A DNA stretch of 64,000 nt from Planctomycetota bacterium (GTDB lineage: Bacteria; Planctomycetota; UBA1135; UBA2386), in the NCBI GenBank assembly GCA_965223545.1, contig OZ245006.1:5312001-5376000 (forward strand), given 5' to 3'. Within the stretch, counting starts at the first letter, position 1. Each line of letters begins with the position of its first letter. The notes beneath the pieces were generated by a model. The model did no database searches and was not told the origin of the DNA. It was given only the letters and a program-made list of their open reading frames with translations. Both the position numbers and the translations under genes were made by a program. Shown in pieces: positions 9,164-32,396 of this stretch.

Positions 9164-9240
9164 GTACCGGTAGCTCAATTGGATAGAGCACCTGACTACG
9201 GATCAGGAGGTTGGGGGTTCAAGTCCTCCCCGGTACGCCA
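9164..9240 (+). tRNA. tRNA-Arg (anticodon ACG)
   Basis: Cloverleaf: acceptor GTACCGG/CCGGTAC, D-arm GCTC/GAGC, anticodon arm CCTGA-CTACGGA-TCAGG, T-loop TTCAAGT, encoded CCA; 77 nt. Confidence 0.97.
9195..9240 (+). repeat. att core, tRNA-side copy (46 bp)
   Basis: ACTACGGATCAGGAGGTTGGGGGTTCAAGTCCTCCCCGGTACGCCA, identical to 27024-27069. Confidence 0.95.
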
Positions 9241-10114: not shown

Positions 10115-10339
10115 ATGAACCGTTCCGAGAACGCTGTCGCCCGATGGGTGGCGACAAAGGCTGCCGCGACATACGTCGGTCTGCACGAAGACACGCTTAG
10201 AAAACTCCGCCGCACGGGCGGCCCGCGCTACGCGCGCGTCGGGGGCGCAATCCGGTATGACATCCGCGAGTTGGACGCCTGGATGGGCGAGCAAACGTTC
10301 GCCAGCACCGCCGAGGAAGCGGCAGGGGGTGCCAAGTGA
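10115..10339 (+). CDS. Excisionase/AlpA-like helix-turn-helix protein
   Basis: TKAAATYVGLHEDTLRKLR..GGPRYARVGGAIRYDIRELDAWM fits the MerR-like Xis pattern; GTGA-coupled to the primase. Confidence 0.85.
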   Translation: MNRSENAVARWVATKAAATYVGLHEDTLRKLRRTGGPRYARVGGAIRYDIRELDAWMGEQTFASTAEEAAGGAK

Positions 10340-12951
10340 GCGACCTCGAAGAAAGGGACGACGCCGCACAGGCCGGGAATGACCTGCGCGACGCCACGGG
10401 TTCCATTGAGCAGGATAGGCCAATTGAGACCGGGTCTCAAGGGCGAGAGGAAGCGCCGAAAACCGCGGCTGGCGACGCCGCTGACGCCGGTAGCGCGCTG
10501 AAGACCGACACCATCGCTGCGGTTGACTTCTTGCAGCAGTTCCGCCCCGGGGGACCGTGGCTGCTGTGCGCGTTCCACGAGAGCCGGCCGGAGATGCCGG
10601 CGCGCGAGTTCGGTCCGGACGAGGTCGAGGCGATGGTCCGGTGGATCGAGGAGTGGAACGCCGCCGAGTTCAACGTCTACTTCCACGTCAACAGCACGCG
10701 CCCGAGGCTCAGCAAGAAGGCCGAGAAGGCCGACGTGGTCAGCATCGACTGGTTCCACGTCGACGTTGACCCCGAGGACGGCAAGGACCTGAACGAGGAG
10801 CGTGCTCGGATCCTCAAGGACCTGCGCGAGGACTTCGCGAGCATGGGCCTGCAGCGCCCGTCGGCCATCGTCTTCTCGGGCGGGGGGTATCAAGCCTTTT
10901 GGAGGCTTGATACGCCGATCGAGGTCCGCGGCGACATCAAGGCCATCGAGCAGGCCGAGCGCTACAATCGCCAGATCGAGGGACTGCTGGGCGCGGACAA
11001 CTGCCACAATGCCGACCGCATCATGCGAGTGCCAGGGACGACGAACTGGCCGAACGCGAAGAAGCGCAAGCGCGGGCAGGAGCCAGAGCTGGCCGAGGTC
11101 GTCGAGTTCGAGGACGCCGCCTACGAGCTGTCGAAGTTCGTGCAGGCCGTCGACCGCCAGGAGCGCGGCGCGTCGATCGGCGGCGGCATGAACCGCCCGA
11201 CGGTCGAGCTACCGTCCGGAAACGTGAAGCGGATCCCGCCCGAGTTCCTGCTGGACGCGCTCAAGCATTACGGGATCAGCGACGAGGACAACATTGGCCG
11301 CGTGATCCGCGACGGTGAGGACACCGAGGCGCCGCCGGTGCCTGGCGCCGACCGCTCGCGCTCGGGCTGGTTCCTGCACGCGGTCTGCGAGCTGGTCCGG
11401 CACAACGTGCCCGACGAGCTGATCTACGCCATCGTCACCGACCCGGCCTACGACATCAGCCAGCACCCGATCGGCCAGGGCCGCGGGCGCGACCGCGCGG
11501 TGAAGCGCGCGCTGGTGAAGGCCAAGGAGTCGGTGGAGTCCGACGACTTGGCGATGCTCAACGACGGCTACGCCTTTATCGAGTCCGTGGGCGGCCGGGC
11601 CCGTATCATGTGCGAGCGGGCGAACGAGGCCAGCGGCAGGCGCGAGATCGAGTTCCTGCTGCCCGACGGCTTCAAGATGATGTGGAACAACCGCAAGGTG
11701 ATCCTGGTTGTCGGCAAGGACGAGAAGGGCAACAACAAGTACGACGAGGTGCCGCTGGGCAAGTTCTGGCTCGGCCACAAGCACCGTCGCACCTACCGCG
11801 GCGTGACGTTCTGGCCCGGGCGCGAGTTCGAGCAGGAGCTGAACCTGTGGCGCGGCTTCAACGTCGACGCGGTGCCCGGCGACTGCGACCTGTTTCTGGC
11901 GCACGTCCGCGACAACATCTGTCGCGGCAACGAGGAGCACTACGACTACCTGCTGCACTGGATGGCGAACGCCGTGCAAGACCCCGGCCAGCCCGGCCAG
12001 GTCGCGATCGTGCTACGCGGCGGGCAGGGCACCGGCAAGGGCGTGTTCGCGCACACCCTCGGGCACCTGTTCGGGATCCACTACAAGCACGTCGTGAACC
12101 CCGACCACATCATGGGGCAATTCAACAGCACCCTGCGCGACGCCGCGTTGGTGTTCGCCGACGAGTGTTTCGTGGCCGGCGACCGCCGGCAGGAATCCGC
12201 GCTCAAGACCCTGATCACCGAGGACCGGCTGCGCACCGAGGCCAAGGGCCTCGACTCCGTGGAAACCCGTAATTGCGTGCACCTGATCATGGCCACCAAC
12301 CAGGACTGGTCGATCAGCGTCGACTGGGACGACCGCCGCTTCTTCGCCCTCAACGTCGGCGACGACCGGAAGCAAGACACGGCGTACTTCAGGGCGATCC
12401 ACGAGCAGATGAAAGCCGGCGGCTACGAGGCCCTGATGCACCGACTGCTGACCATGGACCTGCGCGATTTCAACGTCCGCCAGTGCCCGAAGACGGACGA
12501 GCTGCGGCGGCAGCAGGTGAACTCCCTGGACGGCACCCTGGAAGGGGAGTGGCTGGAGTGCTTGATCCGTGGCGAGCTACCGACCGGCGACATCGACGCG
12601 CGCGGCTTCGTCACGATCGAGACCGGGAAGCTGCTCGCTGCGTGGGAGCTGCGGATCGGCAACAAGGCGGCGAAGGCCAACGCTCTTCGGGCGCTGCTGC
12701 ACGCGCCGCAGGGCAATCACGTCAAGGACGACGAGGATGACGAAGGGAACACGGGCATGGGCTTCAAGAGGGTCACGACCAGCCCCCGAGGGTACGTCAT
12801 CCCCCCGCTGGCCGAGGCGAGGCGGCGCTACGACGAGCGCCGTTGGCGGATCCAGTGGGACGACGGTGATAAGTGGGCAGTGGTCGAGATCGACGGGCAG
12901 CGCCAGCGGTCGGTCATCGTGCGGGCCGAGCGCGAGGGCGAGGCGTTCTAA
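10336..12951 (+). CDS. Primase-helicase fusion (RepB-like AEP primase N-terminus, SF3/DUF5906-like helicase C-terminus)
   Basis: N-terminal HVDVD, SGGGYQAFW, RIMRVPGT; C-terminal Walker A GGQGTGKG, Walker B LVFADE, motif C MATN, DRRF. Confidence 0.88.
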   Translation: MSDLEERDDAAQAGNDLRDATGSIEQDRPIETGSQGREEAPKTAAGDAADAGSALKTDTIAAVDFLQQFRPGGPWLLCAFHESRPEMPAREFGPDEVEAMVRWIEEWNAAEFNVYFHVNSTRPRLSKKAEKADVVSIDWFHVDVDPEDGKDLNEERARILKDLREDFASMGLQRPSAIVFSGGGYQAFWRLDTPIEVRGDIKAIEQAERYNRQIEGLLGADNCHNADRIMRVPGTTNWPNAKKRKRGQEPELAEVVEFEDAAYELSKFVQAVDRQERGASIGGGMNRPTVELPSGNVKRIPPEFLLDALKHYGISDEDNIGRVIRDGEDTEAPPVPGADRSRSGWFLHAVCELVRHNVPDELIYAIVTDPAYDISQHPIGQGRGRDRAVKRALVKAKESVESDDLAMLNDGYAFIESVGGRARIMCERANEASGRREIEFLLPDGFKMMWNNRKVILVVGKDEKGNNKYDEVPLGKFWLGHKHRRTYRGVTFWPGREFEQELNLWRGFNVDAVPGDCDLFLAHVRDNICRGNEEHYDYLLHWMANAVQDPGQPGQVAIVLRGGQGTGKGVFAHTLGHLFGIHYKHVVNPDHIMGQFNSTLRDAALVFADECFVAGDRRQESALKTLITEDRLRTEAKGLDSVETRNCVHLIMATNQDWSISVDWDDRRFFALNVGDDRKQDTAYFRAIHEQMKAGGYEALMHRLLTMDLRDFNVRQCPKTDELRRQQVNSLDGTLEGEWLECLIRGELPTGDIDARGFVTIETGKLLAAWELRIGNKAAKANALRALLHAPQGNHVKDDEDDEGNTGMGFKRVTTSPRGYVIPPLAEARRRYDERRWRIQWDDGDKWAVVEIDGQRQRSVIVRAEREGEAF

Positions 12952-13204: not shown

Positions 13205-13801
13205 CCGCCCTTGGCGTTGCCGTTCTCTTGGGCAACCAGGGCTTCCGCGCGGCCCAAGGGTCAGCAAGCGCGACCTGAGACACGGCCGCGGAGGTTTGAG
13301 ACGACTTGGAGCCACGCGGCTGCCCAGGACCCAACCAGCTGCCGACACGGTGTGAACCGTCATCGGCGTCGTAGATGACCGCGCGGGCGCGCTACGGCGC
13401 CGCAGGTACGCGCTGCACGGGCGCGAGGCTGCAGATGCCGTGGTTTCGAGCCACAACCACAGCGCTGTCCCGCGCCCTGCGTCCCGCCCTGGCACCTAGT
13501 CCACATTCCACCGCCAGAATCCAACAGAGCGCCATACAGCACCTTTCTGGGCGACGCTACAGCGCCGCACCCCGGGCCCCGTCCGTCGTTTCGCGTGGGA
13601 CACACTACCGACACCTTCACCGAGCCGCCGGCGCGGCGTGTGAACCGCGCGCGGTCGCCCCGCTCGACCACAGCGAACGTCTCACCCCGAGCCACGACTG
13701 CCGCGCCGGACCGTCCAACACCACCGACCCGTCAAGCGCGCCGCCGAGTTCATTCCGTAGAATGGGTCCGCACGGCGCCACACGCGGCGGTAGTTTTCCG
13801 C

Positions 13802-14479
13802 ATGGGGAACGACACTGCATTCGCCTACTGCCGGGTGTCCGGCACCGGCCAGCTCGACGGGCACGGCCTGGAGCGCCAGGAGGACGCCGTGAGGCGCTTC
13901 GCGCGCTCGCGGGGCCTCGGCATCGTCGAGGTGTTCCAAGACGCTCACACGGGCACAGAGGCGGACAGGCCGGCCTTCAGCGCGATGCTCGCCGCCCTCC
14001 GCGCCAACGGCACCAAGACGGTGATCGTCGAGTCCATGGACCGCGTCGCCCGCTCGCTGTCCGTGCAGATGGCGCTGATCGCCGCGCTGGAGAGCGAGGG
14101 CGCGGCCCTGATCTCGGCTACCACCGGGCAGGACGTGGTCGCCGAGGTCCGCGACGACCCGATGCGCGAGGCCATGGTCCTCATGCAAGGCGTGTTCGCC
14201 CAGGTCGACCGCAAGATGACCGTGCGCAAGCTGCGGGCTGCGCGCGATCGAAAGCGTGAGGCCGAGGGGCGCTGTGAGGGCGTCAAGCCCTACGGCACGA
14301 TGCCCGGCGAGGACGAGGCCATGGCCATCATCCGCAGGGGCAGGCGGGCCCGGCGCTCGTGGTCCCGCATCGCCGAGGACCTGAACGCAGCCGGCCACCA
14401 CACCCGCGGACGCAAGCACAGCCCTCCGCGCCCATGGACCGCCGACGACGCGCGCGGCGTGTGGCGGCGGCGGCGCTAG
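13802..14479 (+). CDS. Serine recombinase (resolvase family) with C-terminal DNA-binding domain
   Basis: Catalytic motif AYCRVSGTGQ, plus LERQ, DRPAF and VESMDRVAR. Confidence 0.9.
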   Translation: MGNDTAFAYCRVSGTGQLDGHGLERQEDAVRRFARSRGLGIVEVFQDAHTGTEADRPAFSAMLAALRANGTKTVIVESMDRVARSLSVQMALIAALESEGAALISATTGQDVVAEVRDDPMREAMVLMQGVFAQVDRKMTVRKLRAARDRKREAEGRCEGVKPYGTMPGEDEAMAIIRRGRRARRSWSRIAEDLNAAGHHTRGRKHSPPRPWTADDARGVWRRRR

Positions 14480-15326: not shown

Positions 15327-15527
15327 TTGCTGCTGGTCCCACGACAACTGCACCCGCACGCCCTGCGGCACGCATTCGCCGTCGGGCTGACCCGCGAGGG
15401 TCACTCGATGCCCGCCGTGCAGCGCCAACTCGGGCACGAGCACCTGAACACCACCGCGACCTACCTGGCGTCCCTGGGCGAGGACGAGGCCGCCGAGGCC
15501 GTGGCGCGGCGGGCGTGGTCGCTGTAG
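15327..15527 (+). pseudogene. Tyrosine recombinase C-terminal fragment
   Basis: HPHALRHAFA...VQRQLGHEHLNTTATYL carries the HxxR, H and Y catalytic residues; the N-terminal part is missing. Confidence 0.8.
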
Positions 15528-15601: not shown

Positions 15602-16381
15602 ATGCCGGCAACTCGCGCTGTGGTCCTCTTCTCGCTGCTCTTCGCGCCCGGGTGCCACCTGCTGTCCTCGGTGCAGCCAACGGAGGAGCAGCTGGCGACC
15701 GCCGACTTCGGGCCCGCCCCAACGGCTCAGGAGACGGTCGACGCGATCCGTTTCGACGTTCGCACCTTCCGCAAGTTCGAGGGCGTGCCGATCACCTCCC
15801 TTCGAGTGGATCATGACGAGCCCGAGCAGGCGTGGGTCGGTGAACGCCCGATTGGCGCCGCCGACCACGAGTTTCGGTTTGGTTGGCGCGTCAACGCGAC
15901 CATCTCGTCGCCGTCCTACACACTGACGAGGTCCTTCCTCCTAGCCAAGCGCCCTCACGGCTTCGGCGCGCTCGCACGCGGGCAGGAGGGCCGCTGGTGT
16001 TTCTCTCCGTACATCGAGAACCTCAACCGAGAGTTGGCAGCGCGAGGCCCCGCGGACTCAGAGTTCGCGTCCGCCGACTTTGGCTCAACGCCGAGTGGTT
16101 ACGAACAGCACCTCACCGGCGCGATCAAAGGCCAGTTGAAAGACCCCGATTCGGCTCGCATCAGATTCGCCGCACCTCGAAAGACCTGGGGCCGAGTGGT
16201 CGGAGTCGAAGGGACTGAGTTCGGTTGGAGTGTGACGGCCTTAGTCAACGCCAAGAACAGCTACGGCGGTTACGTCGGCGAGAAGCCGTGGTCGTTCATG
16301 TTCCGCGACGGTCGAGTGGTGTCTGCGACTCCGCTCGGCAGCGGTTTTGAACTGGGCCACGCTGCCGCGCCCGCGCGGTAG
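15602..16381 (+). CDS. Lipoprotein with two related domains
   Basis: Lipobox-like APGC; repeat ATADFGPAP / ASADFGSTP; C-terminal LKDPDSAR...VNAKNSYGGYVG. Confidence 0.8.
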   Translation: MPATRAVVLFSLLFAPGCHLLSSVQPTEEQLATADFGPAPTAQETVDAIRFDVRTFRKFEGVPITSLRVDHDEPEQAWVGERPIGAADHEFRFGWRVNATISSPSYTLTRSFLLAKRPHGFGALARGQEGRWCFSPYIENLNRELAARGPADSEFASADFGSTPSGYEQHLTGAIKGQLKDPDSARIRFAAPRKTWGRVVGVEGTEFGWSVTALVNAKNSYGGYVGEKPWSFMFRDGRVVSATPLGSGFELGHAAAPAR

Positions 16382-18760: not shown

Positions 18761-19127
18761 CAACTCCTCCGGGCTGACGCACCACGACATCGACCGGGCG
18801 ATGGAATCGCTGGCGAAACACTCTGCCCGCGCAGGTGAGACCGCAGCCAAAGCCTACGTGCGACTCCTGCTCGACCAGCCCGACGACGACATGACCACGC
18901 TGGCCAAGGCGCGCGAGATGCTCGCGCCAAATGCTCCGAGCGCCCCCGAGGCGCTCGTCGCTGACGCGGAAGCCGAACTCGACGCCTATATCGGCTCGGT
19001 CGCCCGGGCTGGCGAGACAGCGGGCCAAACGATGGCGCGACTCGAAAAAGCCCGCGATGGCGGTTTTGAGCGCCGCTACACCTTGCTGGCGGACGCCCGA
19101 CGCCACGCCCTGCGGAACCGGCGATGA
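18708..19127 (+). CDS. Hypothetical protein with internal ARAGETA repeat
   Basis: AAGGA RBS; SARAGETAAKAY and VARAGETAGQTM. Confidence 0.7.
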   Translation: MDETTIIKRARALISTTDNSSGLTHHDIDRAMESLAKHSARAGETAAKAYVRLLLDQPDDDMTTLAKAREMLAPNAPSAPEALVADAEAELDAYIGSVARAGETAGQTMARLEKARDGGFERRYTLLADARRHALRNRR

Positions 19128-19362
19128 CGACCACCGAAGCAGAGCGGGAACGCCGTCGCCATTACGACATGCTCTACCACGCCCAGGCTGCGGGCCAGAA
19201 GTGGGCCGCACCGGCGCGCTGTGGGAGTTCGCCGGCGACATCGCCATCACGCTCGGCGAGGGGCGCGACCCAGCGGCACTGTGGCGCCGCATCGGTGGCG
19301 AGCCGTACCGCGAGCGCGACTACGTCGTGGAGTTCCTCCGTGCCGCGATGGCCACCACCTGA
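19124..19362 (+). pseudogene. Small hypothetical gene with an apparent 1-bp frameshift near 19207
   Basis: MTTTEAERERRRHYDMLYHAQAAGQKWA, after which the GC3-rich frame switches to RTGALWEFAGDI...VEFLRAAMATT-stop. Confidence 0.5.
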
Positions 19363-19620: not shown

Positions 19621-21030
19621 TCAACTCGCCGGAGACTCCTCGTCCCCGTCACCACAGAGCTGCGCGACGATCTCGCGGGCGGTCTGGACGGCGTCGCCGT
19701 CCTCGTAATCGATCCTGATCGGGAACGCGGTGACCGCGGGCTCCGACAGGTTGCTGGCCGTGACCCTGCACGTGATCGTGCCACCGGTCACGTCCCGCTC
19801 GGCGAACACCAAGAAACGGAACAGCGTGGGCTCGACTCGGTGCCGAAGCACCTCGCATTCCAGCACGTGTCGGGCGTCGCGATCATTAGGCACGGGCTTG
19901 TAGTAGAAGTTGTGCGGGTCCCTTCTTTCTTGCTGAAACGAATTGAGGGCGGCCAACGCGCGTGGAGAGGGGTGGGGGTCAAAGAGCGATCTCAATTGAT
20001 CGTAGGTCGATCTGACCGCAGGCGGCACGGGAGGACTTGGCAGAGAGCTTGACGCCATGCGTCGCTGAGCCTTGTCGAGGGGATAGAGAAACACCAAGCC
20101 GTCGGACAGCCAGAACTCCAGTTGCGATTCTCTCGCGGGCGCGCCACCGGTGTTCTCGATCTCGATCGTGATTTCCGCGCATCGAGTCTTCGCGCTCAGT
20201 TGCTTCGGGAGGCTCGTTAAGCGCCGCTCGATCGACTGGACCCACTCGGGGTACTTGCTGCCCTGGTACTCTTCGATCTCACTCGACGACGGCGGCTGGA
20301 ACTTGCCAAGTTCCCAGAGCGCACCGACGGAGCGGGCATCGTGGAAGTCGAGCTTGACCGGGAACCGCCTCTTCACGTGTTCGACCAGCTCTGCGATCAG
20401 CGCGTCGGGGAGCGTGGCGTGTCTCACGACGTGAATCGTGGCACGCTCCGTTCTCAGCGCGATCTGGATCGCCGGCGAGGCGCCTTCAAGCAGCCGCACG
20501 CGGCGCTCCAATCGCGCGACCTGTTTCTGGTGCGAGTCGGGTTCCGGCTCCGCGAGCCAGCCGTCGGGGATGCGCAGCCACTTCAAACCCTGAGCGTTGG
20601 CTGTGTGCAACGCCACGGTGTCGTGGCTGAAGAACGTCAGTTCGTCATCTCGCCCGTGCGCGATCGCCTCAGCGACGATCCGGTCATCGGGGTGCGCTAG
20701 GTCTAGGTCCGGCGCCGGAACGGGGCGCGCGCCGGACAGTACCACATCGACTCTCGGTCCCGACTCGCGTAGAACGACGGGCTGGCCCGCGGCTTCGAGT
20801 AGTTGTCTGAACAGCCCGGAACTCAGATTCCGCGCCCGCCTGTTTCGTCGCCCCTTACCGTCGGACTTGAAGCGGTCCACCTCCCTGACGACGCTCCGCC
20901 CGAGCACGATTTGCACATGCCCTCCATGGCTGGGCAACTCGCGCCATGGCAGTTCTGGGAGGCTTCTGCACTCCATCAGGAAGTTGGTGTCGGGGAACAG
21001 GGCTAGCATCCGCGAAGGCTGTTCCGCCAC
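19621..21030 (-). CDS. PIN-domain protein with long C-terminal extension
   Basis: PIN acidic motifs FPDTNFL, VVREVDRFK, PDDRIVA, FSHDT, then a coiled coil and a beta-rich region. Start may be ATG 21009. Confidence 0.82.
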   Translation of the reverse strand: MAEQPSRMLALFPDTNFLMECRSLPELPWRELPSHGGHVQIVLGRSVVREVDRFKSDGKGRRNRRARNLSSGLFRQLLEAAGQPVVLRESGPRVDVVLSGARPVPAPDLDLAHPDDRIVAEAIAHGRDDELTFFSHDTVALHTANAQGLKWLRIPDGWLAEPEPDSHQKQVARLERRVRLLEGASPAIQIALRTERATIHVVRHATLPDALIAELVEHVKRRFPVKLDFHDARSVGALWELGKFQPPSSSEIEEYQGSKYPEWVQSIERRLTSLPKQLSAKTRCAEITIEIENTGGAPARESQLEFWLSDGLVFLYPLDKAQRRMASSSLPSPPVPPAVRSTYDQLRSLFDPHPSPRALAALNSFQQERRDPHNFYYKPVPNDRDARHVLECEVLRHRVEPTLFRFLVFAERDVTGGTITCRVTASNLSEPAVTAFPIRIDYEDGDAVQTAREIVAQLCGDGDEESPAS

Positions 21031-21117
21031 CTAGCGCTGGACCATCGTTCGGTATAAATGAGTTCTCCATATGGGTTTATGGAGAATCCTCGCTCTGCTG
21101 GGCTCAAGGGGGTGCCC

Positions 21118-21156
21118 TTGACATGTCGACAGGTTTGTTGTATATTCTTGTCAACA
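21118..21156 (+). promoter_or_regulatory. Sigma70-type promoter with overlapping operator-like dyads
   Basis: TTGACA (21118-21123), 17-nt spacer, TATATT (21141-21146); TGTCGACA at 21124-21131 and TGTCAACA at 21149-21156; AAGGAG RBS before ATG 21185. Confidence 0.8.
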
Positions 21157-21184
21157 CGCAAATGCAACTACCAAGGAGCCCACG

Positions 21185-21550
21185 ATGACCCGATTCGGAT
21201 CGCTTCTCCGGGACCACCGGCGGCGGGTCGGGCTGACGCTCAGGGCGTTCGCCGCCGATACCAACCTCGACCCGGCCTACGTCTCTCGCATCGAGCGCGG
21301 CGTGATCTCGCCGCCGAAGGACGACCTGAAGGTCGCGCTGCTAGCCGAGGCTGTCGGCTTGAACGAGGGTAGCGCCGAGTGGCAGGAGTTCAAGGATGCT
21401 GCGGCGCTGGACGCGGGTCGCTTGCCATCGGATCTCGCCTCGGACGAGGCGCTGCTGAACAAACTGCCCATCCTATTCCGCACGGCGCGCGGCGAGCGGC
21501 CAACCCGCCAGGAGCTGACCGACTTGTACGAGTTCCTGAAGGACAAGTGA
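21185..21550 (+). CDS. XRE-family HTH transcriptional regulator
   Basis: FGSLLRDHRRRVGLTLRAFAADTNLDPAYVSRIERG. Confidence 0.92.
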   Translation: MTRFGSLLRDHRRRVGLTLRAFAADTNLDPAYVSRIERGVISPPKDDLKVALLAEAVGLNEGSAEWQEFKDAAALDAGRLPSDLASDEALLNKLPILFRTARGERPTRQELTDLYEFLKDK

Positions 21551-22179
21551 GCTACCAGCGCCGCGACTACGACGAGCTGCGCCGAATCGTCGATCAGTTC
21601 CTGGAAAAGCACCACCCGAGCGGGCGCCTCCCGATCCCCATCGAGGAGATCGTCGAGTTCCAGCTAGAACTCGATATTGTGCCCATTCCCGGGCTGCGCG
21701 ACCGGTGTCAGTCGGAGGCGAACGGTTTTCTCGCTCGTGGGCGTGACGCGATCTTCGTGGACCAGTTTGTCGCCCAGCAGCGCGAGAACCGCTACCGGTT
21801 CACGCTGGCGTATGAAGTGGGGCGCTACCTGCTCCAGGAGTCGATCGTTGGCACGTGCAAGATCCATAGCCTGGAGTCGTACTTGGAGTGGCACGAGAAC
21901 TTGCCCGACTCCGTGTGGAAGAATGCGAAGTTCGAGTGCTACGACTTCGCAGGGCTCCTGCTCGTCCCGACGCCGCACCTCAACCGGGAAGCGCGGCACG
22001 CGCGCGACCGGGCTTTTGAGCGTCTGCGAGTCGCTGGCCGCGAACCCGAGGAGCACCTGGCGACGATCTGGTCGAGCGTCACCGCCTATCTTGCCGACAG
22101 CGTTTTCCAGGTGTCGAGCGAAGCGATGAAGCGAAGGCTTCGACGTGAGAACCTGATCCCTGCGGACCTGGAGCTGTAA
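21547..22179 (+). CDS. ImmA/IrrE (peptidase M78)-like protein with degenerate zinc site
   Basis: Family scaffold LPIPIEEI, RYRFTLA, FAGLLLVP, FQVS..AM..RL; the HExxH position reads YEVGR. Confidence 0.82.
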   Translation: MSYQRRDYDELRRIVDQFLEKHHPSGRLPIPIEEIVEFQLELDIVPIPGLRDRCQSEANGFLARGRDAIFVDQFVAQQRENRYRFTLAYEVGRYLLQESIVGTCKIHSLESYLEWHENLPDSVWKNAKFECYDFAGLLLVPTPHLNREARHARDRAFERLRVAGREPEEHLATIWSSVTAYLADSVFQVSSEAMKRRLRRENLIPADLEL

Positions 22180-22195
22180 TCACGTCCGCGCTGAA

Positions 22196-22366
22196 TGGCA
22201 GCCGGCTGTGTCGTGGTTTGTGGAGACTCGCGCCTGACAAAGCTCGTCACGTCCTCCGCTACCTGGCCGGCGACTGCTGGACGAGGTAGTCCGGCCCGAC
22301 CTGTGCGCTCGGCGGGGCGATGATCAGGCCCGCGAGAACCACAACGGCACGACACTCGGCTTGCCA
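22196..22366. ncRNA. Candidate structured RNA (long bulged stem enclosing internal hairpins)
   Basis: Six nested complementary blocks: TGGCA/TGCCA, GCCG/CGGC, GTGTCGTG/CACGACAC, TTGTGG/CCACAA, CTCGCG/CGCGAG, CCTGA/TCAGG. Inner pairs CTACCT/AGGTAG and CCGA/TCGG. Confidence 0.5.
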
Positions 22367-22448
22367 GCGAGCCTGATTCGCCTGCGACGAGCGAGAGGGT
22401 AGCAATCCTCATTCGAGGCGTCGGCGGCCGACTGTCGATAGTGGTGGC

Positions 22449-23117
22449 ATGGGGAACACGACCGATCCGGCTGTTGGCGACGAGTTGTGCCTCATGAGCG
22501 GCCACTTCGTCGCCGCGGCTCGCCAACATCTCGACAGTGTGAAGAAGTGTGAGGGGGCGAAGCAAGCGCTGGACCAGGAGCGATTTGCGCTCAGCGGCAT
22601 CATCTGCGCGGCGAGTGCGTTAGATGCAGTGATGACCGAGGCCAAGGCGCTGCGCCGACTGGACGCCCCCCACGGCATCGCGCCGGCGATCGTTGCTCTG
22701 AACGATCAACCGGCTAAGCCGGTTCTCGGGCTGCTCAAGTTTGTGCCCGAGGCTGATCAGCCGAACCCGGGCGACAGGCAATTCCGCGAGGTGTGCGCCG
22801 CGTACTTCCTCCGAAACAAGTTCGTCCACTGGGACGCCGTCTGGGCGCGGCCGTGGCCGCAACGCCTACACGACCTGGGCGTCGACTGGAAGGCCCGCGA
22901 CCCTCTCTATCGAGCAGCAACAGGCAAACCGGCTCCCTCGCGCCCCGTCTTCCCCGACGACGTGCTGTGCAGCGAGGGCGTCGCGTGGGCCATCGACGCC
23001 TGCACCGCATTCCTGCGCTGGTGGTCCTCGATGGCACGCACAAAGCCGTGGTGGGAAGGCGGGATAGTGCCCGCCAAGGTGATGATTGCCCGGGTGTCAC
23101 GCCGCCCGTCTCTGTAG
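22449..23117 (+). CDS. HEPN-like protein (RxxxxH)
   Basis: Helical protein with SGIICAASALDA and LRNKFVH (R at 22812, H at 22827). Confidence 0.6.
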   Translation: MGNTTDPAVGDELCLMSGHFVAAARQHLDSVKKCEGAKQALDQERFALSGIICAASALDAVMTEAKALRRLDAPHGIAPAIVALNDQPAKPVLGLLKFVPEADQPNPGDRQFREVCAAYFLRNKFVHWDAVWARPWPQRLHDLGVDWKARDPLYRAATGKPAPSRPVFPDDVLCSEGVAWAIDACTAFLRWWSSMARTKPWWEGGIVPAKVMIARVSRRPSL

Positions 23118-23602
23118 CAGGTCCGCGGTGGACAGCGAACTAGTTGGCGACCTTCTGATGCAGCCTGTTGTTTGCCTTCGGAGGTCACCCCACGTCGCGC
23201 TTACGCTTCACGCCCGCCTTCTCCAGGAGCAGGTCCGCGATCTTCTCCACGCAATCGCGCAGGTGGTCCAGCGAAGGGTGAACGTAGGTGCGCGTGCTGT
23301 TGCCGCGCGCCTTGGGCTTGGTGTGGTTCATCAGGATCGCCAGGTCGATCTCGCGCAGGAACGCCTCGTGCCCTGCGGTGGCGAACGTGTGCCGCAGCCG
23401 GTGGGGGCTCGGCAGGGATGGCAGCTTCTTGCCGGCTGCGTCGTAGCGTTGTGCGCGGGCGTCTTGCACGCAAGTGACTTGCCCCGTGCGGTTGCGCGTG
23501 GGGAACACGAAACCGCCATCGCCGTCGGTGAACAGCACTTGGTTTGTAAGCGTCCGGTGACGCCATGGCGGCCAGCGGTTGAAGAGCGACCGCCGACGCG
23601 TC

Positions 23603-25156
23603 TCAGCAGGACTGGCCGGCAGCGCGTGCCTTCGCCCAGCCCCAGGGCGTGAGTTCGGCGATGCGCGACGACGGCGTGGTGGCGACAGCGACCAAGACGT
23701 CCTCGAGGTAGCGCTCGACGTTGACCTTCGCCAGCTTGCAGCTGAGCACGATCGAGTAGAGGCGAGCTGCCACGTTGCCACCCTTCTCGCTGGCGAGCGT
23801 CATCCAGTTCTTCCGGCCCGTCACGACGTGGCGCAGGTCACGTTCGGTGTCGTTGTTGTGGATCGGCAGCCGGCCGTCGTCGAGGTGCGCGAGCAACGGG
23901 TCCCGCTGCCGGATGGCGTAGCTCACCGCCTTGCGAAGCAGTTCGTTGCCCGCGGTCGCCGGATCCTCCTGGAGGCCGAACACGATCTCGTAGAGGCTGT
24001 GGAGCACCGCTTTGGATCTGCGGCTACGAACGGTCTCACGCAGTTCGATGAGGGCTTCACGGGTCAGGTTCCGATCCTTCGCTCGGGACAGTACGGCGCG
24101 CTCGATCCAGAAAAGCCTCTGGATCGGTCGCAGCGCCAAACCAGCCCGTGATGCACCAGCAGTGAGCGCATCCCGAAACTTCCGACGGGCGTGCGCCCAG
24201 CAGCCAGCCCGCGTGATCGCGTTCTGCTGCGCTTTCGGGTTCACACCGTCGTAGCCATCGGTCAACAATGTCCCGGACCACGCGCCGAGAAAAGCGTTGG
24301 GCCCCTTCGCGGATCGATTGTCCCTGAAGTCGGCCACGACCATCTCGTTGGGGCTGCCGCGAGCGTTCCGCCAGGCCCAGAGCACACCGCGCCGGGTGCC
24401 CTTCTGGCCTTCCAGTCGCACCCTGATCGGGGTCTCGTCGGCTTGAAGAACATCTTCTTGAAGCAGCTGGCGCCGCATCTCGGCCAGGATCGGACGCGCC
24501 GCGATCTCGTCGAAGCGCGCCAGCATGTCCCACATGGTCTGCTTCGGGACGTGCGCCCCGAAGCGGCGGAAGATCCCCTGCAGGCGGTTCAGCGGCAGGT
24601 GGTCGCCGTACTTCGCTGTGACAAGATGCGCGTAGACGGAGGGCTCGTACTTCGCCTTCTCGACGACGCCGGCAGGCATCGACGCCATCTTCATCCTGTG
24701 CCCGTGCGGGCACGCGTACTTGTTGCGCACGTAGCGCTTCACGACCAACCGCGCTGGGATGATGTGGCCACGCTCGGTGACGTCAGTCCCGATGCAGTGC
24801 ATGGCCTCGCCGCACTCGGGGCAGCAGCGCTCCGCTTCCGGCACGTCGACCTCGACGACATGCCGATCCAGGTGCTCGGCGAACTGACCGCGACCGTGAC
24901 CGCGCTTCCGCTTCTTCTTCGGGTCAGGCTTCGCGAGTTCGCTCGACTGCTCCGCTTCCTGCGCCTGCTTCTGCAGCTCTTCGAGCTGCGCGACGCCGGC
25001 CTCGAACAACAGCAGTTGGTTCGGATTGATGTGCTCGCGGCGCCGTCCGAACGTGCGCTGCTTCATCAGTTCGAGCTGCCCGCGAAGGCGCTCGATCTCG
25101 GCGCGCAGCTTGACGATCGTCGAGTTGGCTTCGTCGAGGTCCGTGAGCGGCGTCAC
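23603..25156 (-). CDS. tnpC: IS66 transposase TnpC
   Basis: Leucine zipper, CPECG zinc finger, HLPLNR, ADET, TDGY, CWAHARRKF, NNDTERDLR, GRKNW. Confidence 0.96.
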   Translation of the reverse strand: MTPLTDLDEANSTIVKLRAEIERLRGQLELMKQRTFGRRREHINPNQLLLFEAGVAQLEELQKQAQEAEQSSELAKPDPKKKRKRGHGRGQFAEHLDRHVVEVDVPEAERCCPECGEAMHCIGTDVTERGHIIPARLVVKRYVRNKYACPHGHRMKMASMPAGVVEKAKYEPSVYAHLVTAKYGDHLPLNRLQGIFRRFGAHVPKQTMWDMLARFDEIAARPILAEMRRQLLQEDVLQADETPIRVRLEGQKGTRRGVLWAWRNARGSPNEMVVADFRDNRSAKGPNAFLGAWSGTLLTDGYDGVNPKAQQNAITRAGCWAHARRKFRDALTAGASRAGLALRPIQRLFWIERAVLSRAKDRNLTREALIELRETVRSRRSKAVLHSLYEIVFGLQEDPATAGNELLRKAVSYAIRQRDPLLAHLDDGRLPIHNNDTERDLRHVVTGRKNWMTLASEKGGNVAARLYSIVLSCKLAKVNVERYLEDVLVAVATTPSSRIAELTPWGWAKARAAGQSC

Positions 25157-25186
25157 TCCCTCTGATTAACACAAACCGGAGACGGA

Positions 25187-25567
25187 TCAAGTCACGGCCA
25201 GTCGTTGCAGCACCTGATCGCGAACTTCTCTGCGTCGCGCGCCACGGAGGTCGATGCCGTCCAACAAGAGCGCGAGATCGCTACTCGCAATCTCGAATCG
25301 GCTGTTGTTCTCAGCCGAGCGATCGAAGACCTGAAAGCGGCCGCTCGTCAGTCGCTTCGCCAGCACCCAGTAACCGGACGGCTCCCACACCAGTGCCTTC
25401 ATCATGGTCCGGCGCTTGTTGAAGAAGAGGAAGAGGTGACCAGATTGCGGGTCGTGGTCGACCACGTCGATGACCGCACCGGACAGACCACTGAAGCTCT
25501 TCCTCATGTCCACCGGCTTCCGGCAAACGAAGATCTTGACTTGCGGCGAGGGCGGAAAGCTCAGCAT
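25187..25567 (-). CDS. tnpB: IS66 accessory protein TnpB
   Basis: PVDMRKSFSGL, LFLFFNKRR, KRL..GRF, LLLDGIDL. Confidence 0.95.
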   Translation of the reverse strand: MLSFPPSPQVKIFVCRKPVDMRKSFSGLSGAVIDVVDHDPQSGHLFLFFNKRRTMMKALVWEPSGYWVLAKRLTSGRFQVFDRSAENNSRFEIASSDLALLLDGIDLRGARRREVRDQVLQRLAVT

Positions 25568-25905
25568 GGCAGCAAGACTCCGAGCAGCCGTCGGAGCGTC
25601 GCCTCGTCGAAGTCGCGCTGCACATCGACAACCGCGCCCGACGGCACCCGCAACTCAATGGCCGCTGCTCGTCGCGGCGATGGGGCCGCAGCGACCACCA
25701 GCTCCCCGAAGTCCGACACCGCCGGCGCGGACGTGGGCGCCGCCGCAGCTCGGGCTTGCCGCCTTGCCCAGTAGATGCGGTTTGCGTTGACTCCACGCCG
25801 GCGCGCGAACTCGGCGACCGTCACGCCTGAGTTGTCCAGCTCTTGAAGCAGCTCGCGCATCTCCGCCCGAGCCCACACGGGGATTCTCTTCGTCATCCGC
25901 CGCAT
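25561..25905 (-). CDS. tnpA: IS66 accessory protein TnpA (HTH)
   Basis: SGVTVAEFARRRGV...YWAR and IELRVPSGAVV; located inside the IRs. Confidence 0.88.
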   Translation of the reverse strand: MRRMTKRIPVWARAEMRELLQELDNSGVTVAEFARRRGVNANRIYWARRQARAAAAPTSAPAVSDFGELVVAAAPSPRRAAAIELRVPSGAVVDVQRDFDEATLRRLLGVLLPC

Positions 25906-26892
25906 CCTGCCGATCCGCCAGCGGCTTTCGAGATGCCTTCACCGGACGCTTACCTTGGTTTTCCTCTTCGCGGCGGCGAAGTATGTCCAACACGAACTCG
26001 CACACCGGCACCGTGAACGCCTTCCGCGCGCCGCCCTTGGGGTTCGGCCGGAACACCGTGCCGGCGTTCAGGTCCAGGTGCTCCCACCGAACCGACTTGC
26101 CGTCGTTCCGGCGCAGCCCCGTGAACAGGTAGAACAGCTGCAGGTCGCGCAGCACCGGGTTGCGCATCTCGTTGACCGCGGCCCACCACGCGGGCAGGTC
26201 ATCCCAGGCGATCGGGTCGTCCCGCTCGCGTTCCTGGTGGAACACGACGGCCTTCACCGGGTTGCGAGGAGGGACGTGTTCGTGGATCCGCGCGGCGGTG
26301 TTCCAAGCAGCCCGAACGTGGCGCAGCACTCGGTTGGCGATGTAGATGCCGTGCGCCTTGGTCAGGCTCTTGTGGATGCTCCGGCAGGCCGTGCCGTCGA
26401 GGTCGAGCAACGGGCGCCGCATCCGGTCGGACAGGTATTTCTCCGTTTCGTGCTCCATGTGCCCGATCGACACCGGCGACCGCTCCTTCGCGCGCATGTC
26501 TTCCAGGTGCAGATTCACGGCGTCGCCCAGCGTGATGGCTTGCTGCTCCGCGACCCGGGCGGCGTCGCGCGCGCTACGCTTGGCCTCGTTGGGGTTTTCC
26601 CCGGTGTCCATGTCGACTTTCAGCGCCCGGGCGCGCTTGCGGGCCTGATCGACCGTCCAGGGTCCGTAGCGGCCGATGGTGACCTTCACGGACTTGCCGT
26701 GCAGGTCACGCTGGAGGATGAAGGTCGCGTTGATCTGGCCAGGTCGGCGGGGGTGCCGAACGCGGATGCCAAGCCCGGCTTCCAACGTGTCCCAGAACAC
26801 GATTTCGCGCTTTCCGGGCGCGGGTGGATCCAACCTCCTGATGGAGGCGTCAGAGAGTTTGAGGCGGCGGGCGAGGTAGGTCATAGGTAGGC

Positions 26893-26915
26893 GCTGAGGT
26901 AGGGAATCGGTAGGT
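26893..26915 (+). repeat. Putative integrase arm-type binding sites
   Basis: GCTGAGGTAGGGAATCGGTAGGT; further AGGTAGG copies overlap the int start codon region. Confidence 0.65.
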
Positions 26916-27023
26916 GATGGCGTCCCGCTTGAACCCGCGGGAACACTCGCCACTCCACCTATCCCTTTGTCCTCGGTCGCCTTAGCACGTCGGGACCCGC
27001 AGCCGCCCGCTCCTGGTCGTCCA

Positions 27024-27069
27024 ACTACGGATCAGGAGGTTGGGGGTTCAAGTCCTCCCCGGTACGCCA
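27024..27069 (+). repeat. att core, distal copy (displaced 3' half of tRNA-Arg)
   Basis: Identical to 9195-9240; the 5' half of the tRNA is absent here. Confidence 0.95.
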
Positions 27070-27169
27070 ACATCAGCTGGCTAAAGCCAGCAGATGTTGT
27101 CGTTCCGGTGAGGACTTGTTCTCGCCGGCCGGCGCCGCTTCGCGGCTTGTTCGGCGAGTTCAAGTCCTC
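27068..27169. terminator. Two hairpins, probably the original tRNA-downstream structures
   Basis: CAACATC-A-GCTGGCT / AGCCAGC-A-GATGTTG at 27068-27099; GAGGACTTG..CTCGCCG / CGGCGAG..CAAGTCCTC at 27110-27169. Confidence 0.45.
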
Positions 27170-29139: not shown

Positions 29140-29315
29140 GTCTGCCGGGACCGCCCGAGTTCGGTTGAGCGCATCTCGGCATGACGGCAGGTTCGCCAGG
29201 ATCTGTGAGACAGTGCCATCCAGCCAACACATGGGGACACCACGGGTCTGCTTCTCATCGCCTCACTGCTCGGTGCAGTTCGTCCGCGAAGCGAGAACAA
29301 GGATCGGAGGTGCCC

Positions 29316-32300
29316 ATGCTTGCCAACCAATCGTCTCCGTTCGGGTGTCGTTTCGCTCGAGTTCTGCTCGCGCTCGGGTTGAGTGGGTGCCCACTCGCAG
29401 GTCAAGTCGGTCCTCGGGTTCTGCTCGACCTCAACCCCGTCCCGGTTGGCGTCCAGAGGTCGTCGGCGCCCGCAGAGTTCGCTTCGTTGGGTAGTTGGGC
29501 CTATTTCAGGGCGCGCAACCCGGGCCTCGGGACCGAGCTCTACCGCACTCTCGGCGTGCCGGGAAGCACGGTGTTGGCGGGAGACCTGGTGCCGGGAAGC
29601 GGCAGCTCGTCACCCAGCTCGTTGACGGTCGTGGGCTCGCGGCTGTACTTCGCGGCAGGTTCCGGCCAAGGCAACGAGCTCTGGAGCACGGATGGGCAGT
29701 CCACTCCCGTGATCGTCGCTGACATTCACCCCGGCCCGAGTTCGAGCCGCCCAGCCAACCTGGCTCGTGCGGGGGGTGCGTTGTTCTTCTCCGCCGACGA
29801 TGGCGTGAGTGGGAGAGAGCTGTGGCGGTCGGATGGGACGTCTCGCGGGACATGGCTCGTGCGAGACATCGCGCGTGGGTCCCTTGGCTCGGACCCCGCT
29901 CCCCTCGCCGAGCTCGGGGGGAAGCTGATGTTCTATGCGACGACGGGTTCGCTTGGCCGAGAGCTCTGGGTGTCTGACGGCACCGCGCGGGGTACGTCGC
30001 TCGTCCGTGACATTCGCCCGGGACCGGCGACATCGACACCGGTCATTGGCAATGCTGTCGTCCTCGGCAGCCGGATGCTGTTCGTGGCCAACGACGGTGC
30101 TGCCGGCTCGGAACTGTGGCACACGGATGGAACCACGGCCGGAACGTCGCTCGTGCGCGACATCAACCCGGGAGCCGGATCGTCGTCGAACCCGACGGAC
30201 TTGGCGGTGGTCGGCCGCCACGTCTTCTTCACTGCGAGTGATGGAGTGAACGGTCGTGAGCTATGGCGGACGGATGGGACCGCGATGGGCACCGTGATGG
30301 TGGCCGACTTGGTGCCGGGCAAGGGCGGCTCCACCCCCTCGTCGCTAGTGGCGCTCGGCGCCTCGGTTCTGTTCGTCGCGCGGGAGGCCAGCACCGGCAC
30401 CGAGTTGTGGATCAGCGACGGGACCGCCGCCGGGACACGGTTGGTGGTCGACTTGGCCCCAGGGGTTGCTGGCTCCGCGCCGAGTTCGCTGACCGTTGTC
30501 GGCAACCTCGCGTTCTTCCGAGCCGACGACAGGTCGGGTCAGGGCCAGGAGATGTGGGTGACCGATGGCACTGCTCGAGGGACCACTTCGCTCGGCGACC
30601 TCCACCCCGGCCAGAGATCCTCGACGCCCGACCAGTTGCATGCGCACGGTCAGTTTCTCCTCTTCGCAGCGCAGGACGGAGTCGCGGGCCTCGAGCCTTG
30701 GGCGTCGGATGGAACGGCGATGGGTACGAGGCAGATCGCAGACCTCTCCACCGCTGGTTCCGCGAGCTCCATGGTGACCTCCGCGGTCGCACTGAATGGT
30801 CGAACCTACTTCGGGGCCGACGATGGGGCCACCGGTTCCGAGCTGTGGACGACGGATGGCACCGCGGCCGGCACGGTGCTCGTGCGGGACATCAGCCCCG
30901 GTAGCGCCGGGTCGCGACCCGCGTCGCTCGTGCGCGTCGACGATGTCTTGTTCTTCAGTGCGCTCGATCCCGTCGTTGGCCGTGAGCTGTGGGTCAGCGA
31001 CGGAATCGGTGCCGGGACTCGGTTGGTGGCCGACCTGGTGCCGGGTAGTGCCGGGGCCAGCCCGACGAACCTGCTCGCATTGCGCGGGCGTCTTTTGTTC
31101 AGTGGAGAGACTCCGGCGAGCGGCCGCGAGCTTTGGGTCAGCGACGGCACGGCGATCGGTACGCAGCTTCTCGCCGATGTCTACCCGGGATCGGGCAGCA
31201 GTGTCCCGAGCGAGCTCGCTGCGATCGGAGACCTGGTGTACTTCGCCGCGAGCACGCCGGCCGAGGGCACCGAGGCCTGGGTCAGTGATGGGACCCCGGG
31301 GGGCACGGCTCTACTCCGGGACGTGCTTTCGGGCCCATACGGTTCTGCTCCCGCTGGGTTCACTCGTGCGGGACGCTGGGTCGTGTTTGCGGCGCACGAT
31401 CTCGCCAGTGGTCGAGAGCTATGGAGGACCGACGGTAGCGCTGCCGGTACGACGCGGGTCGCCGACCTCGTCCCCGGGTTCTTCTCGAGCTCGCCCGAGT
31501 CGATCGTGCGCATGGGGGACCGCGCGGTTTTCACCGCAACGGTCCCCCTCGGTGATCGGGAGCTGTGGATCACCGATGGAACCGCCGCCGGGACCTCGCG
31601 CGTCGCCGATATCCGGCCGGGTCTGGTGGGAAGTGATCCCGCGATGCTGACCCGGTTGGGTCATCGCGTCGTGTTCGTTGCGGACGATGGGGTCTCCGGC
31701 GCCGAGTTGTGGATCTCGGATGGCACCGCTGCCGGAACTCGATTGGTGTCGGATATCAACCCCGGAGTCGCGGGCGCCGGTATCGCGAACCTGACCGCGA
31801 TCGGCGAGCGATGGGTCTACTTCTCGGCGCACGACGCGAGGGGTGATCGAGAGTTGTGGATCTCCGACGGGAGTGCTGCCGGGACCAGGAAGTTCGATCT
31901 CTTGCCGCTCGGATCGTCTGCGCCGCGCGAATTCGTCCTGGCCGGCGATCACGTGTTCTTCAGTGCGACGGACGCCAACTTCGGCGACGAACCGTTCGTG
32001 CACGCCGTCTCCGGCACGGCGCAGATTCTGCCGAGCTCATGTGGCGCCAGCGGCCGTTCACCAACGCTCTATGCGACTCCGCCAATCCTCGGCAAGACGC
32101 TCTCGCTCACCGGACACGACACGGTTGCGAACGGCGCGGGAGCCGTCCTCATCTCCGCGCCGGGTCCCACCATCACGCTGGCCGGTGGCTGTTCGACGCG
32201 GCTGCATCCCCTGACCATGGCGGTCGTGGCGACGCCGTCGACGGACATCGCCGGACGCTGGTCGGCGAGCTTGGCGATCCCCAACTTGGCTGTGCTCCAG

Positions 32301-32396
32301 AGCGTCCCGGTCCTCGTGCAGGCCGTGTTTGGGCCCAGCACGGCCCCGCCCCGCGCCGATCTCACGCCCCCCGTCCTGCTCATCCTGGGCCGCTGA
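29316..32396 (+). CDS. Secreted ELWxxDGT-repeat (beta-propeller-like) protein, copy 1
   Basis: GGAGG RBS; signal peptide ending LAG-Q; about 16 E-x-W-x-x-D-G repeats; two-Cys C-terminal domain. Confidence 0.92.
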   Translation: MLANQSSPFGCRFARVLLALGLSGCPLAGQVGPRVLLDLNPVPVGVQRSSAPAEFASLGSWAYFRARNPGLGTELYRTLGVPGSTVLAGDLVPGSGSSSPSSLTVVGSRLYFAAGSGQGNELWSTDGQSTPVIVADIHPGPSSSRPANLARAGGALFFSADDGVSGRELWRSDGTSRGTWLVRDIARGSLGSDPAPLAELGGKLMFYATTGSLGRELWVSDGTARGTSLVRDIRPGPATSTPVIGNAVVLGSRMLFVANDGAAGSELWHTDGTTAGTSLVRDINPGAGSSSNPTDLAVVGRHVFFTASDGVNGRELWRTDGTAMGTVMVADLVPGKGGSTPSSLVALGASVLFVAREASTGTELWISDGTAAGTRLVVDLAPGVAGSAPSSLTVVGNLAFFRADDRSGQGQEMWVTDGTARGTTSLGDLHPGQRSSTPDQLHAHGQFLLFAAQDGVAGLEPWASDGTAMGTRQIADLSTAGSASSMVTSAVALNGRTYFGADDGATGSELWTTDGTAAGTVLVRDISPGSAGSRPASLVRVDDVLFFSALDPVVGRELWVSDGIGAGTRLVADLVPGSAGASPTNLLALRGRLLFSGETPASGRELWVSDGTAIGTQLLADVYPGSGSSVPSELAAIGDLVYFAASTPAEGTEAWVSDGTPGGTALLRDVLSGPYGSAPAGFTRAGRWVVFAAHDLASGRELWRTDGSAAGTTRVADLVPGFFSSSPESIVRMGDRAVFTATVPLGDRELWITDGTAAGTSRVADIRPGLVGSDPAMLTRLGHRVVFVADDGVSGAELWISDGTAAGTRLVSDINPGVAGAGIANLTAIGERWVYFSAHDARGDRELWISDGSAAGTRKFDLLPLGSSAPREFVLAGDHVFFSATDANFGDEPFVHAVSGTAQILPSSCGASGRSPTLYATPPILGKTLSLTGHDTVANGAGAVLISAPGPTITLAGGCSTRLHPLTMAVVATPSTDIAGRWSASLAIPNLAVLQSVPVLVQAVFGPSTAPPRADLTPPVLLILGR

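Follow-up and report, generated by a model that had tools for sequence, protein, structure and literature searches.

Genes at the locus

The window analysed here is a stretch of 64,000 nucleotides (nt) from a Planctomycetota bacterium (GenBank assembly GCA_965223545.1, contig OZ245006.1, forward-strand positions 5,312,001 to 5,376,000), and all coordinates below are counted from its first letter unless a locus is named. The analysis centers on a two-gene cassette, consisting of an XRE repressor and a partner of the IrrE/ImmA (M78) fold that has lost its zinc ligands (hereafter pseudo-ImmA), which lies between two genes for predicted ribonucleases (RNases) on a satellite-like mobile element. 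The features of this locus are as follows.

21185..21550, + strand: XRE repressor, CapH/DdrO-like (HTH_31, E 4e-11), with an LPxxF-R-T motif
21547..22179, + strand: pseudo-ImmA, an IrrE/ImmA (M78)-fold pseudopeptidase of 210 residues carrying Y89-E90-x-x-R93, Q97 and K128; GAF domain absent
21118..21146, + strand: sigma70-type promoter of the xre operon, TTGACA-17-TATATT, 11 of 12 consensus bases
21136..21156, no strand: predicted XRE operator overlapping the -10 box, with a clade-specific right half-site GTCAAC instead of TACAAC
21063..21086, no strand: inverted repeat of 24 nt in the divergent intergenic region, role not assigned
19621..21009, - strand: PIN_4-domain protein of 462 residues, C-terminal part unannotated, a predicted RNase (Pfam PIN_4, E 2e-5, over the cut-off)
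22196..22366, + strand: imperfect 171-nt hairpin (rod), marginal and unique, 82 nt upstream of the HEPN gene
22449..23117, + strand: HEPN-fold protein of 222 residues with R122-N-K-F-V-H127, a predicted RNase of a small family without a name

A preliminary description made from the sequence had named a divergent PIN gene, an XRE gene behind a near-consensus promoter, an ImmA/IrrE-like partner unable to bind zinc and an HEPN-like RxxxxH gene, and had placed them in the cargo of a satellite. Each of these identifications is borne out by the evidence given below; for zinc binding this applies to the canonical mode, and for the two flanking genes the RNase assignment is probable.

Fold and zinc ligands of pseudo-ImmA

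The protein matches the M78 family (E 0.008) and, in PADLOC, capP (E 5e-9). Its structural model (predicted local distance difference test score, pLDDT, 91.6) aligns with CapP (7t5t, Z 13.0) and IrrE (3dti, Z 11.9) and gives a Foldseek E of 5e-5, pointing to an IrrE-type zincin fold; the model ends in helices, with no C-terminal GAF domain. At the site of the HExxH motif stands YEVGR, and Lys128 occupies the site of the third ligand, a glutamate in active relatives. All three zinc ligands are thus replaced (His to Tyr89, His to Arg93, Glu to Lys128), as is a fourth conserved histidine (to Gln97), while the catalytic Glu90 is retained. Profile alignment places Y89, R93 and K128 on His96, His100 and Glu129 of CapP, which are its zinc ligands (bioRxiv 10.1101/2022.04.27.489752; statements taken from the literature refer here and below to the accessible portions of the cited papers). 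The fourth histidine is present in 139 of 141 active relatives. An arginine seven residues ahead of the first ligand, R82, is invariant (78/78) and corresponds in position to CapP R90, which binds single-stranded DNA (ssDNA) (PMC13228613). On these alignments pseudo-ImmA is predicted to be unable to bind zinc in the canonical way.

Origin of the YExxR clade and selection on its pocket

Among the best 120 of 134 matches in a search for relatives, 119 could be parsed, of which 113 carry HExxH and six carry YExxR. The latter are the nearest relatives of pseudo-ImmA among the matches listed, at 57-89% identity (P0001 being nearest, at 89%). An exhaustive profile search returned 1,643 matches, and its best 150 include three more distant YExxRxxxQ proteins at 49, 41 (a fragment) and 37% identity; both histidines are kept in 141 of the 145 new representatives in this set. 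YExxR occurs together with K128 in all seven close members, and the longer motif YExxRxxxQ is fixed in all ten members of the clade, down to 37% identity, as is Glu90 (10/10). Around the former metal site K128, E130 and D133 are kept in eight of nine full-length members, the exception being the most distant, P0144, in which K128 is replaced by Gln. In a quick IQ-TREE search of 82 rows, compiled without the three distant members, the 11 YExxR rows form a single branch (support 99) nested among HExxH proteins. The tree and alignments indicate that the clade arose once, inside an active HExxH family.

Between the window and the two other YExxR loci for which DNA was compared (L005 and L006), the ratio of nonsynonymous to synonymous substitution rates (dN/dS, NG86) is 0.16-0.22; dS is 1.6-3.1 and thus saturated, so these values are approximate. 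The codons for Y89 and R93 have changed synonymously among the three loci with the residues kept. The identical replacements, the dN/dS of about 0.2 and the synonymous changes at Y89 and R93 together argue for purifying selection on a rebuilt pocket and not for decay. The clade is rare, occurring in two of 339 genomes of the class, and no relatives of pseudo-ImmA were found in viral contigs or PLSDB plasmids.

From sequence comparison we regard these proteins as a new clade of pseudopeptidases within the ImmA/CapP family, of single origin, under selection and accompanied by a repressor and operator of their own. A literature search of limited reach, covering few subscription papers and no supplements, turned up no account of such a clade, and a term search of the accessible text of a review of pseudo-metallopeptidases (PMC11266112) yielded no mention of M78, ImmA or IrrE. 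A separate catalytic loss was seen elsewhere in the same M78 family: at L011:5195-5776 the motif reads HKxxH, a Glu-to-Lys change that spares the ligands.

The XRE repressor and its predicted operator

The XRE profile matches the structures of DdrO and CapH. R99 of the LPxxF-R-T motif is invariant (31/31), and F98-R99 aligns with the cleavage sites of CapH (F82|R83) and DdrO (L106|R107) (PMC13228613, PMC12828697), making it the predicted scissile bond in the active family; the F-R-T site is also present in all three YExxR-linked XRE proteins. The stop codon of xre overlaps the start of the pseudo-ImmA gene (GTGA). In all three YExxR loci, as in loci of the active family, the M78 gene follows an XRE gene of the same family; the window protein is 75% identical to that of L005 and 62% identical to that of L006.

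A promoter search found the one xre promoter, against a mean of 0.5 in shuffled sequence, and its -35 and -10 cores are equally spaced in L005 and L006. The exact palindrome GTTGTA-N7-TACAAC was present ahead of XRE at 30 of 47 non-YExxR loci, ten duplicate or partial loci being excluded, and was absent from all 50 coding controls. The variant GT(T/C)GTA-N7-GTCAAC occurs in all three YExxR loci and in none of the 47 others; three related loci are few, and the half-site shift may therefore represent one inherited event. No counterpart of the inverted repeat at 21063..21086 was seen in L005 or L006. These patterns suggest that the XRE/M78 pair is an autoregulated cassette whose repressor presumably binds this operator.

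The flanking genes and the spacer

In the PIN protein five acidic residues (D7, E43, D108, D109 and D130) are invariant in the five aligned sequences, and the C-terminal part matches unnamed clusters only. The PIN profile finds matches in two of 339 class genomes. One relative, in genome G142, adjoins tRNA and restriction-modification genes, and relatives on five plasmid records lie near AbiEii, type I restriction, RT/ATPase-S8 and ABC-three-component genes.

The HEPN-like open reading frame (ORF) matches no Pfam, PADLOC, NCBIfam or PHROG family and no sequence in the PDB. Its RNKFVH motif is invariant in all six relatives (50-74% identity), and the top eight of 48,161 chains compared with its model by VIA-align are HEPN-fold proteins (Z 9.1-6.3). 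The best of these (Z 9.1, root-mean-square deviation 3.8, 122 residues aligned) is modest for a helical bundle, the pLDDT of the model being only 66.7; Foldseek gives E values above 0.3 only, with HEPN toxins on top. One homolog, P0122, lies near unnamed atlas clusters, and its structural matches are led by HEPN/HepT but fall under the bar for naming. The RxxxxH motif and the structural ranking taken together make HEPN identity likely. The HEPN profile was found in one of 401 genomes of the phylum, that of the window itself, and no relatives were found in viral contigs, PLSDB plasmids or INPHARED phages.

The spacer between pseudo-ImmA and the HEPN gene had been described as structured over about 170 nt and as possibly assisting the switch as RNA. 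The 171-nt rod exists, but it exceeds chance marginally. With hand-picked ends it folds with z -3.16, whereas the whole spacer gives z -1.15 and the best of 36 sliding windows on two strands gives z -2.4. Allowing for the choice of window, 4/150 and 12/500 shuffles fold as well (p about 0.03), and an inverted repeat as good occurs in 23 of 238 ordinary 268-nt windows (about 10%). The rod folds equally on either strand and as DNA, Rfam has no match in the spacer, and no homologs occur in 339 class genomes beyond short chance matches. We regard the hairpin as real but marginal; nothing besides this one unique structure speaks for RNA-assisted switching. A reading as an attC-like site or a miniature inverted-repeat transposable element was rejected, the hairpin being single-copy in the genome.

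Linkage of the five parts

The locus had been proposed as a single module of PIN, XRE, ImmA-like protein, spacer and HEPN. We found no second locus that combines the XRE pair with another of the parts; what recurs is either this pair or PIN by itself. The comparison covers the three YExxR loci, the six other PIN loci and active-family loci, many of the latter with only 1.5 kb of flank; among close kin (P0001-P0004 and the HEPN relatives), whose surrounding DNA falls outside it, a link of pseudo-ImmA with HEPN may exist. L005 and L006 carry XRE and pseudo-ImmA without PIN, HEPN or spacer homologs, all six other PIN loci lack XRE, M78 and HEPN profile matches, and among 103 loci the HEPN profile matches only those derived from the window. 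PIN and the XRE/pseudo-ImmA pair thus travel independently of each other, and the proposal of one five-part module is not supported. Downstream of the pair in L005 (388 nt upstream and 4.4 kb downstream only) is a DNA methylase-Mrr gene; in L006 (10 kb on each side) the divergent gene encodes a prohead protease/capsid protein and lies between IS91-like transposases.

The nearest ORFs of 31 family loci (102 proteins, being 100 of 115 picked and two added) include defence-type neighbours at 12 loci, namely restriction-modification, Schlafen helicase, E1/E2/JAB, HEPN, PIN, Zeta and Uma2, and recA at three. Neighbours in the family vary freely, and PIN and HEPN look like independently acquired defence-type cargo.

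Active pairs were seen in further settings. At L014, L020, L037, L029 and L007 they adjoin recA (three loci), dprA or uvrC and have a strongly conserved operator; many of these are in Patescibacteria-type records, and the pairs are possibly a LexA-independent regulator of the DNA-damage response. The active pair at L069:3033-10406 is followed, in the same orientation, by an exonuclease gene and a primase-like gene, a setting like that of ImmR/ImmA. The host genome itself also has an HExxH-intact XRE-M78 fusion (L053:988-2597; G000:C1 near 12.3-13.9 kb), followed by an ORF of 156 residues that resembles a DUF4411-type PIN gene and would make this a classical triad in the same genome.

The surrounding mobile element

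The cassette and both flanking genes lie within a satellite-like element of 17.8 kb. Its two ends (9195-9240 and 27024-27069) are copies of a perfect direct repeat of 46 nt, the 3' part of tRNA-Arg(ACG). The principal features of the element are:

9195..9240, + strand: left attachment site (attL), the 3' part of tRNA-Arg(ACG) (tRNA 9164-9240) and left end of the element; 46-nt perfect direct repeat
27024..27069, + strand: right attachment site (attR), 46-nt direct repeat and right end of the element
10115..12951, + strand: replication module of an excisionase/AlpA-like helix-turn-helix (HTH) gene and a primase-helicase (HTH_17, DUF5906, TIGR01613 P4-family primase C-terminus, PHROG primases)
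23185..26953, - strand: tyrosine integrase, split by IS66 at 23546-25953 with an 8-bp target duplication

A resolvase is also encoded. In common with satellites, the element combines attachment repeats at a tRNA, integrase, excisionase/AlpA and primase-helicase genes, a size of about 10-20 kb and the absence of a full virion set. Of the genes by which satellites hijack helpers (Psu, Sid and delta; terS and capsid genes of phage-inducible chromosomal islands) the sole trace is an HTH segment of 54 residues that matches a PHROG of terminase small subunits. Because IS66 splits the integrase, the element is probably immobilised in cis; seven more near-full-length copies of IS66 and several partial ones are present elsewhere in the genome.

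Several other observations concern this region. A 23-nt repeat (family D5) has three copies, at 9308-9330 and 26870-26915 near the element ends, and these are probably arm-type sites of the integrase. The 3' end of attR pairs with host sequence just outside (27049-27118) in a 34-bp, 88% inverted repeat, which gives rise to spurious miRNA-like Rfam matches. A C-terminal fragment of a tyrosine integrase and a serine resolvase inside the element (15327-15527 and 13595-14479) suggest nested acquisitions. A probable lipoprotein with a duplicated motif (15602-16381) matches four PHROGs of unknown function and is a candidate for superinfection-exclusion cargo. At position 19205 a near-identical contig has one additional base, and the window therefore probably holds an assembly indel there, splitting the small ORF at 19124-19362; near-identical pieces of the window in three other sequencing studies are scattered only. 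Just outside the element, at 29181-35949, are two tandem host genes of about 1,100 residues each, built of ELWxxDGT-type repeats.

A proposed reversible switch and its alternatives

The reading that we tentatively prefer, at a little below even confidence, is that XRE and a non-cleaving, stoichiometric anti-repressor form a two-gene mobile cassette. XRE would repress its own operon from the predicted operator over the -10 box. Like active CapP, IrrE and Rir with their repressors, pseudo-ImmA would grip a single XRE molecule at the C-terminal dimerisation helix of the latter, and a trigger, probably a DNA-damage or infection signal, would lift repression reversibly, without a cut. Binding precedents exist: CapP is predicted to bind the CapH monomer via a hydrophobic surface that mimics the dimer interface (PMC13228613), peptidase-inactive IrrE still heterodimerises with DdrO, and Rir, which lacks GAF, blocks Crh dimerisation with no cleavage detected (both PMC12828697), and in PrpR the IrrE fold occurs with the HEXXH residues missing (PMC6765138). 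It is the combination of the CapP, IrrE and Rir precedents with an M78 protein that has no ligands and is co-translated with XRE that suggests binding kept and cutting dropped. No terminator-like site was found on the + strand between pseudo-ImmA and the HEPN gene, and since none separates them, read-through into this co-oriented gene is likely and the switch may gate the HEPN RNase. For control of the divergent PIN gene we found no support. The preliminary description had proposed a non-proteolytic switch over abortive-infection nucleases; the switch itself is strengthened by substitutions that are fixed and selected across the clade, and joint control of PIN and HEPN is not supported. We infer the binding of XRE to its operator, the binding between the proteins, the trigger, the read-through, and the RNase and anti-phage activities.

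Several points weigh against this reading. An anti-repressor co-translated 1:1 with its target needs a trigger, and the GAF domain, the ssDNA-sensing aid in CapP and IrrE, is absent; GAF-less ImmA and Rir are not stimulated by ssDNA (PMC12828697). Glu90, which a purely dead enzyme would not need, is kept in 10/10 members. The neighbours of the three YExxR loci are unrelated, with methylase-Mrr in L005 and prohead protease/capsid and IS91-like transposases in L006, and across the rest of the host genome the operator-like pattern is no more frequent than the control (90 matches versus 94), giving no sign of a genome-wide XRE regulon.

The specific, fixed and evidently non-random replacements also suit a co-repressor or ligand sensor resembling PrpR, in which the pocket of Y89, R93, K128, E130 and D133 would bind a small molecule, nucleic acid or phage peptide, and the protein would stabilise XRE on DNA or shield it from active ImmA-type proteases of incoming elements. 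PrpR is a precedent as a coenzyme A (CoA)-binding regulator on an IrrE fold without HEXXH (PMC6765138; Z 11.9), the 1:1 translational coupling fits, and the host's separate HExxH-intact XRE-M78 fusion adjoining a small gene (L053) agrees with it. We nevertheless find it rather unlikely: the ligand cavity of PrpR needs the GAF domain that is missing here, K128, E130 and D133 are lost in the most distant member, P0144, and all characterised separate M78/XRE pairs in the accessible literature are anti-repressor pairs. Fainter prospects attach to a metal-free protease, in which R93 and K128 would take over the polarising role of Zn2+, Glu90 would act as general base and XRE would be cut at F98-R99. 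The invariance of Glu90 where every ligand has been swapped, two for cationic residues, and the F-R-T site in all three linked XRE proteins are what it would lead one to expect; equally, Glu90 may merely salt-bridge R93, K128 is Gln in P0144, F-R-T is part of the dimerisation helix and would be conserved anyway, and no comparable conversion was found in the literature search. Its fuller form, a metal-free zincin using Arg93 and Lys128 for Zn2+ whose cleavage of XRE releases an HEPN RNase held by the RNA hairpin, is improbable; if true, mobile elements would possess a means of induction that zinc status does not affect.

Compatible with the anti-repressor reading, and unlikely, is an XRE-independent type III-like toxin-antitoxin unit of hairpin and HEPN, after the logic of AbiF/AbiFr. 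The HEPN gene has no adjacent protein antitoxin and is preceded at 82 nt by the 171-nt rod in the same orientation (z -3.16), and AbiF is an HEPN toxin held by a cis non-coding RNA (PMC12737573). Against this, p is about 0.03 once the choice of window is allowed for, the repeat score is reached by about 10% of ordinary windows, the rod folds equally on both strands and as DNA and, short chance matches aside, has no homolog in 339 genomes, and AbiF is not among the structural or sequence matches listed. A five-part defence module, in which an RNA-helped switch controls both nucleases, would suit the compact layout, the divergent gene as in CapH/CapP loci, the intactness of all parts and the known association of COG2856-Xre with PIN (PMC2701414). 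With no second locus exceeding the XRE pair or PIN alone, an operator lying over the xre promoter only, at a distance of 127 nt from the start of PIN, and an HEPN profile confined to window-derived loci (103 loci; 0/400 other phylum genomes), it is very improbable. Decay of the ImmA-like gene, as a relic left in an element that no longer moves, might be suspected from the IS66-split integrase and the rarity of the clade (2/339 class genomes), yet this notion is largely refuted by full-length frames, replacements identical across 37-89% identity and a dN/dS of about 0.2.

Relation to known systems

CapH/CapP (bioRxiv 10.1101/2022.04.27.489752; PMC13228613; 7t5t, 7t5u) shares an XRE repressor and an M78-fold partner beside defence genes. 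It is the best structural match, and its likeness extends to the F-R site in the repressor C-terminus and the Arg seven residues before the first ligand. Here, in contrast, all three Zn ligands are replaced, GAF is absent and there is no CBASS, DISARM or other fixed operon; the fixed divergent immune operon of CapH/CapP is not matched, since the divergent gene is PIN in the window and prohead protease/capsid in L006. ImmR/ImmA and DdrO/IrrE (PMC12828697, PMC2701414) have in common with our cassette the gene pair on a mobile element, an operator over the promoter and, in ImmA, the lack of GAF, but the present locus has no canonical zinc peptidase and its pair is not beside the element's integrase promoter or replication genes. 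Rir of the Rir/Crh pair of Streptococcus thermophilus (PMC12828697) is likewise a GAF-less M78-family protein, reported to block dimerisation by binding, with no cleavage seen; the present clade has replacements of every ligand that are fixed and selected. PrpR/RamB of Mycobacterium tuberculosis (PMC6765138; 6d2s, 6cyy) likewise employs an IrrE fold devoid of HEXXH for XRE-type regulation (Z 11.9). PrpR is a fused HTH-IrrE-GAF metabolic activator that binds CoA and 4Fe-4S, whereas the present system consists of two separate genes, without GAF, on a mobile element and of independent origin from an active family. The link of COG2856-Xre pairs with a PIN toxin was described in 2009 (PMC2701414); in that three-component toxin-antitoxin system (Makarova 2009) PIN is in the same operon as an HExxH-intact COG2856-Xre, while here PIN is divergent and 462 residues long. 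With HepT-like HEPN RNases (1ufb, 2hsb, 7ae2) our HEPN-like protein shares the four-helix fold and RxxxxH, but it has no MNT partner and no sequence match to a Pfam or PADLOC HEPN family. The upstream hairpin loosely recalls AbiFr, a role as RNA antitoxin being putative.

Pairs of XRE and M78 proteins switch on prophages, integrative and conjugative elements, DNA repair and immune operons, and irreversible cleavage of the repressor is the assumed mechanism. Rir hints that binding alone may suffice for switching. The PIN and HEPN genes add two further unnamed defence candidates, which are the routine part of the locus. The clade of pseudo-ImmA proteins, selected and ligand-swapped, with its own repressor and a shifted operator, would offer a natural system for testing whether switching can do without cleavage, and how a protease turns into a reversible sensor or an enzyme without metal, with the close active sister family as its control.

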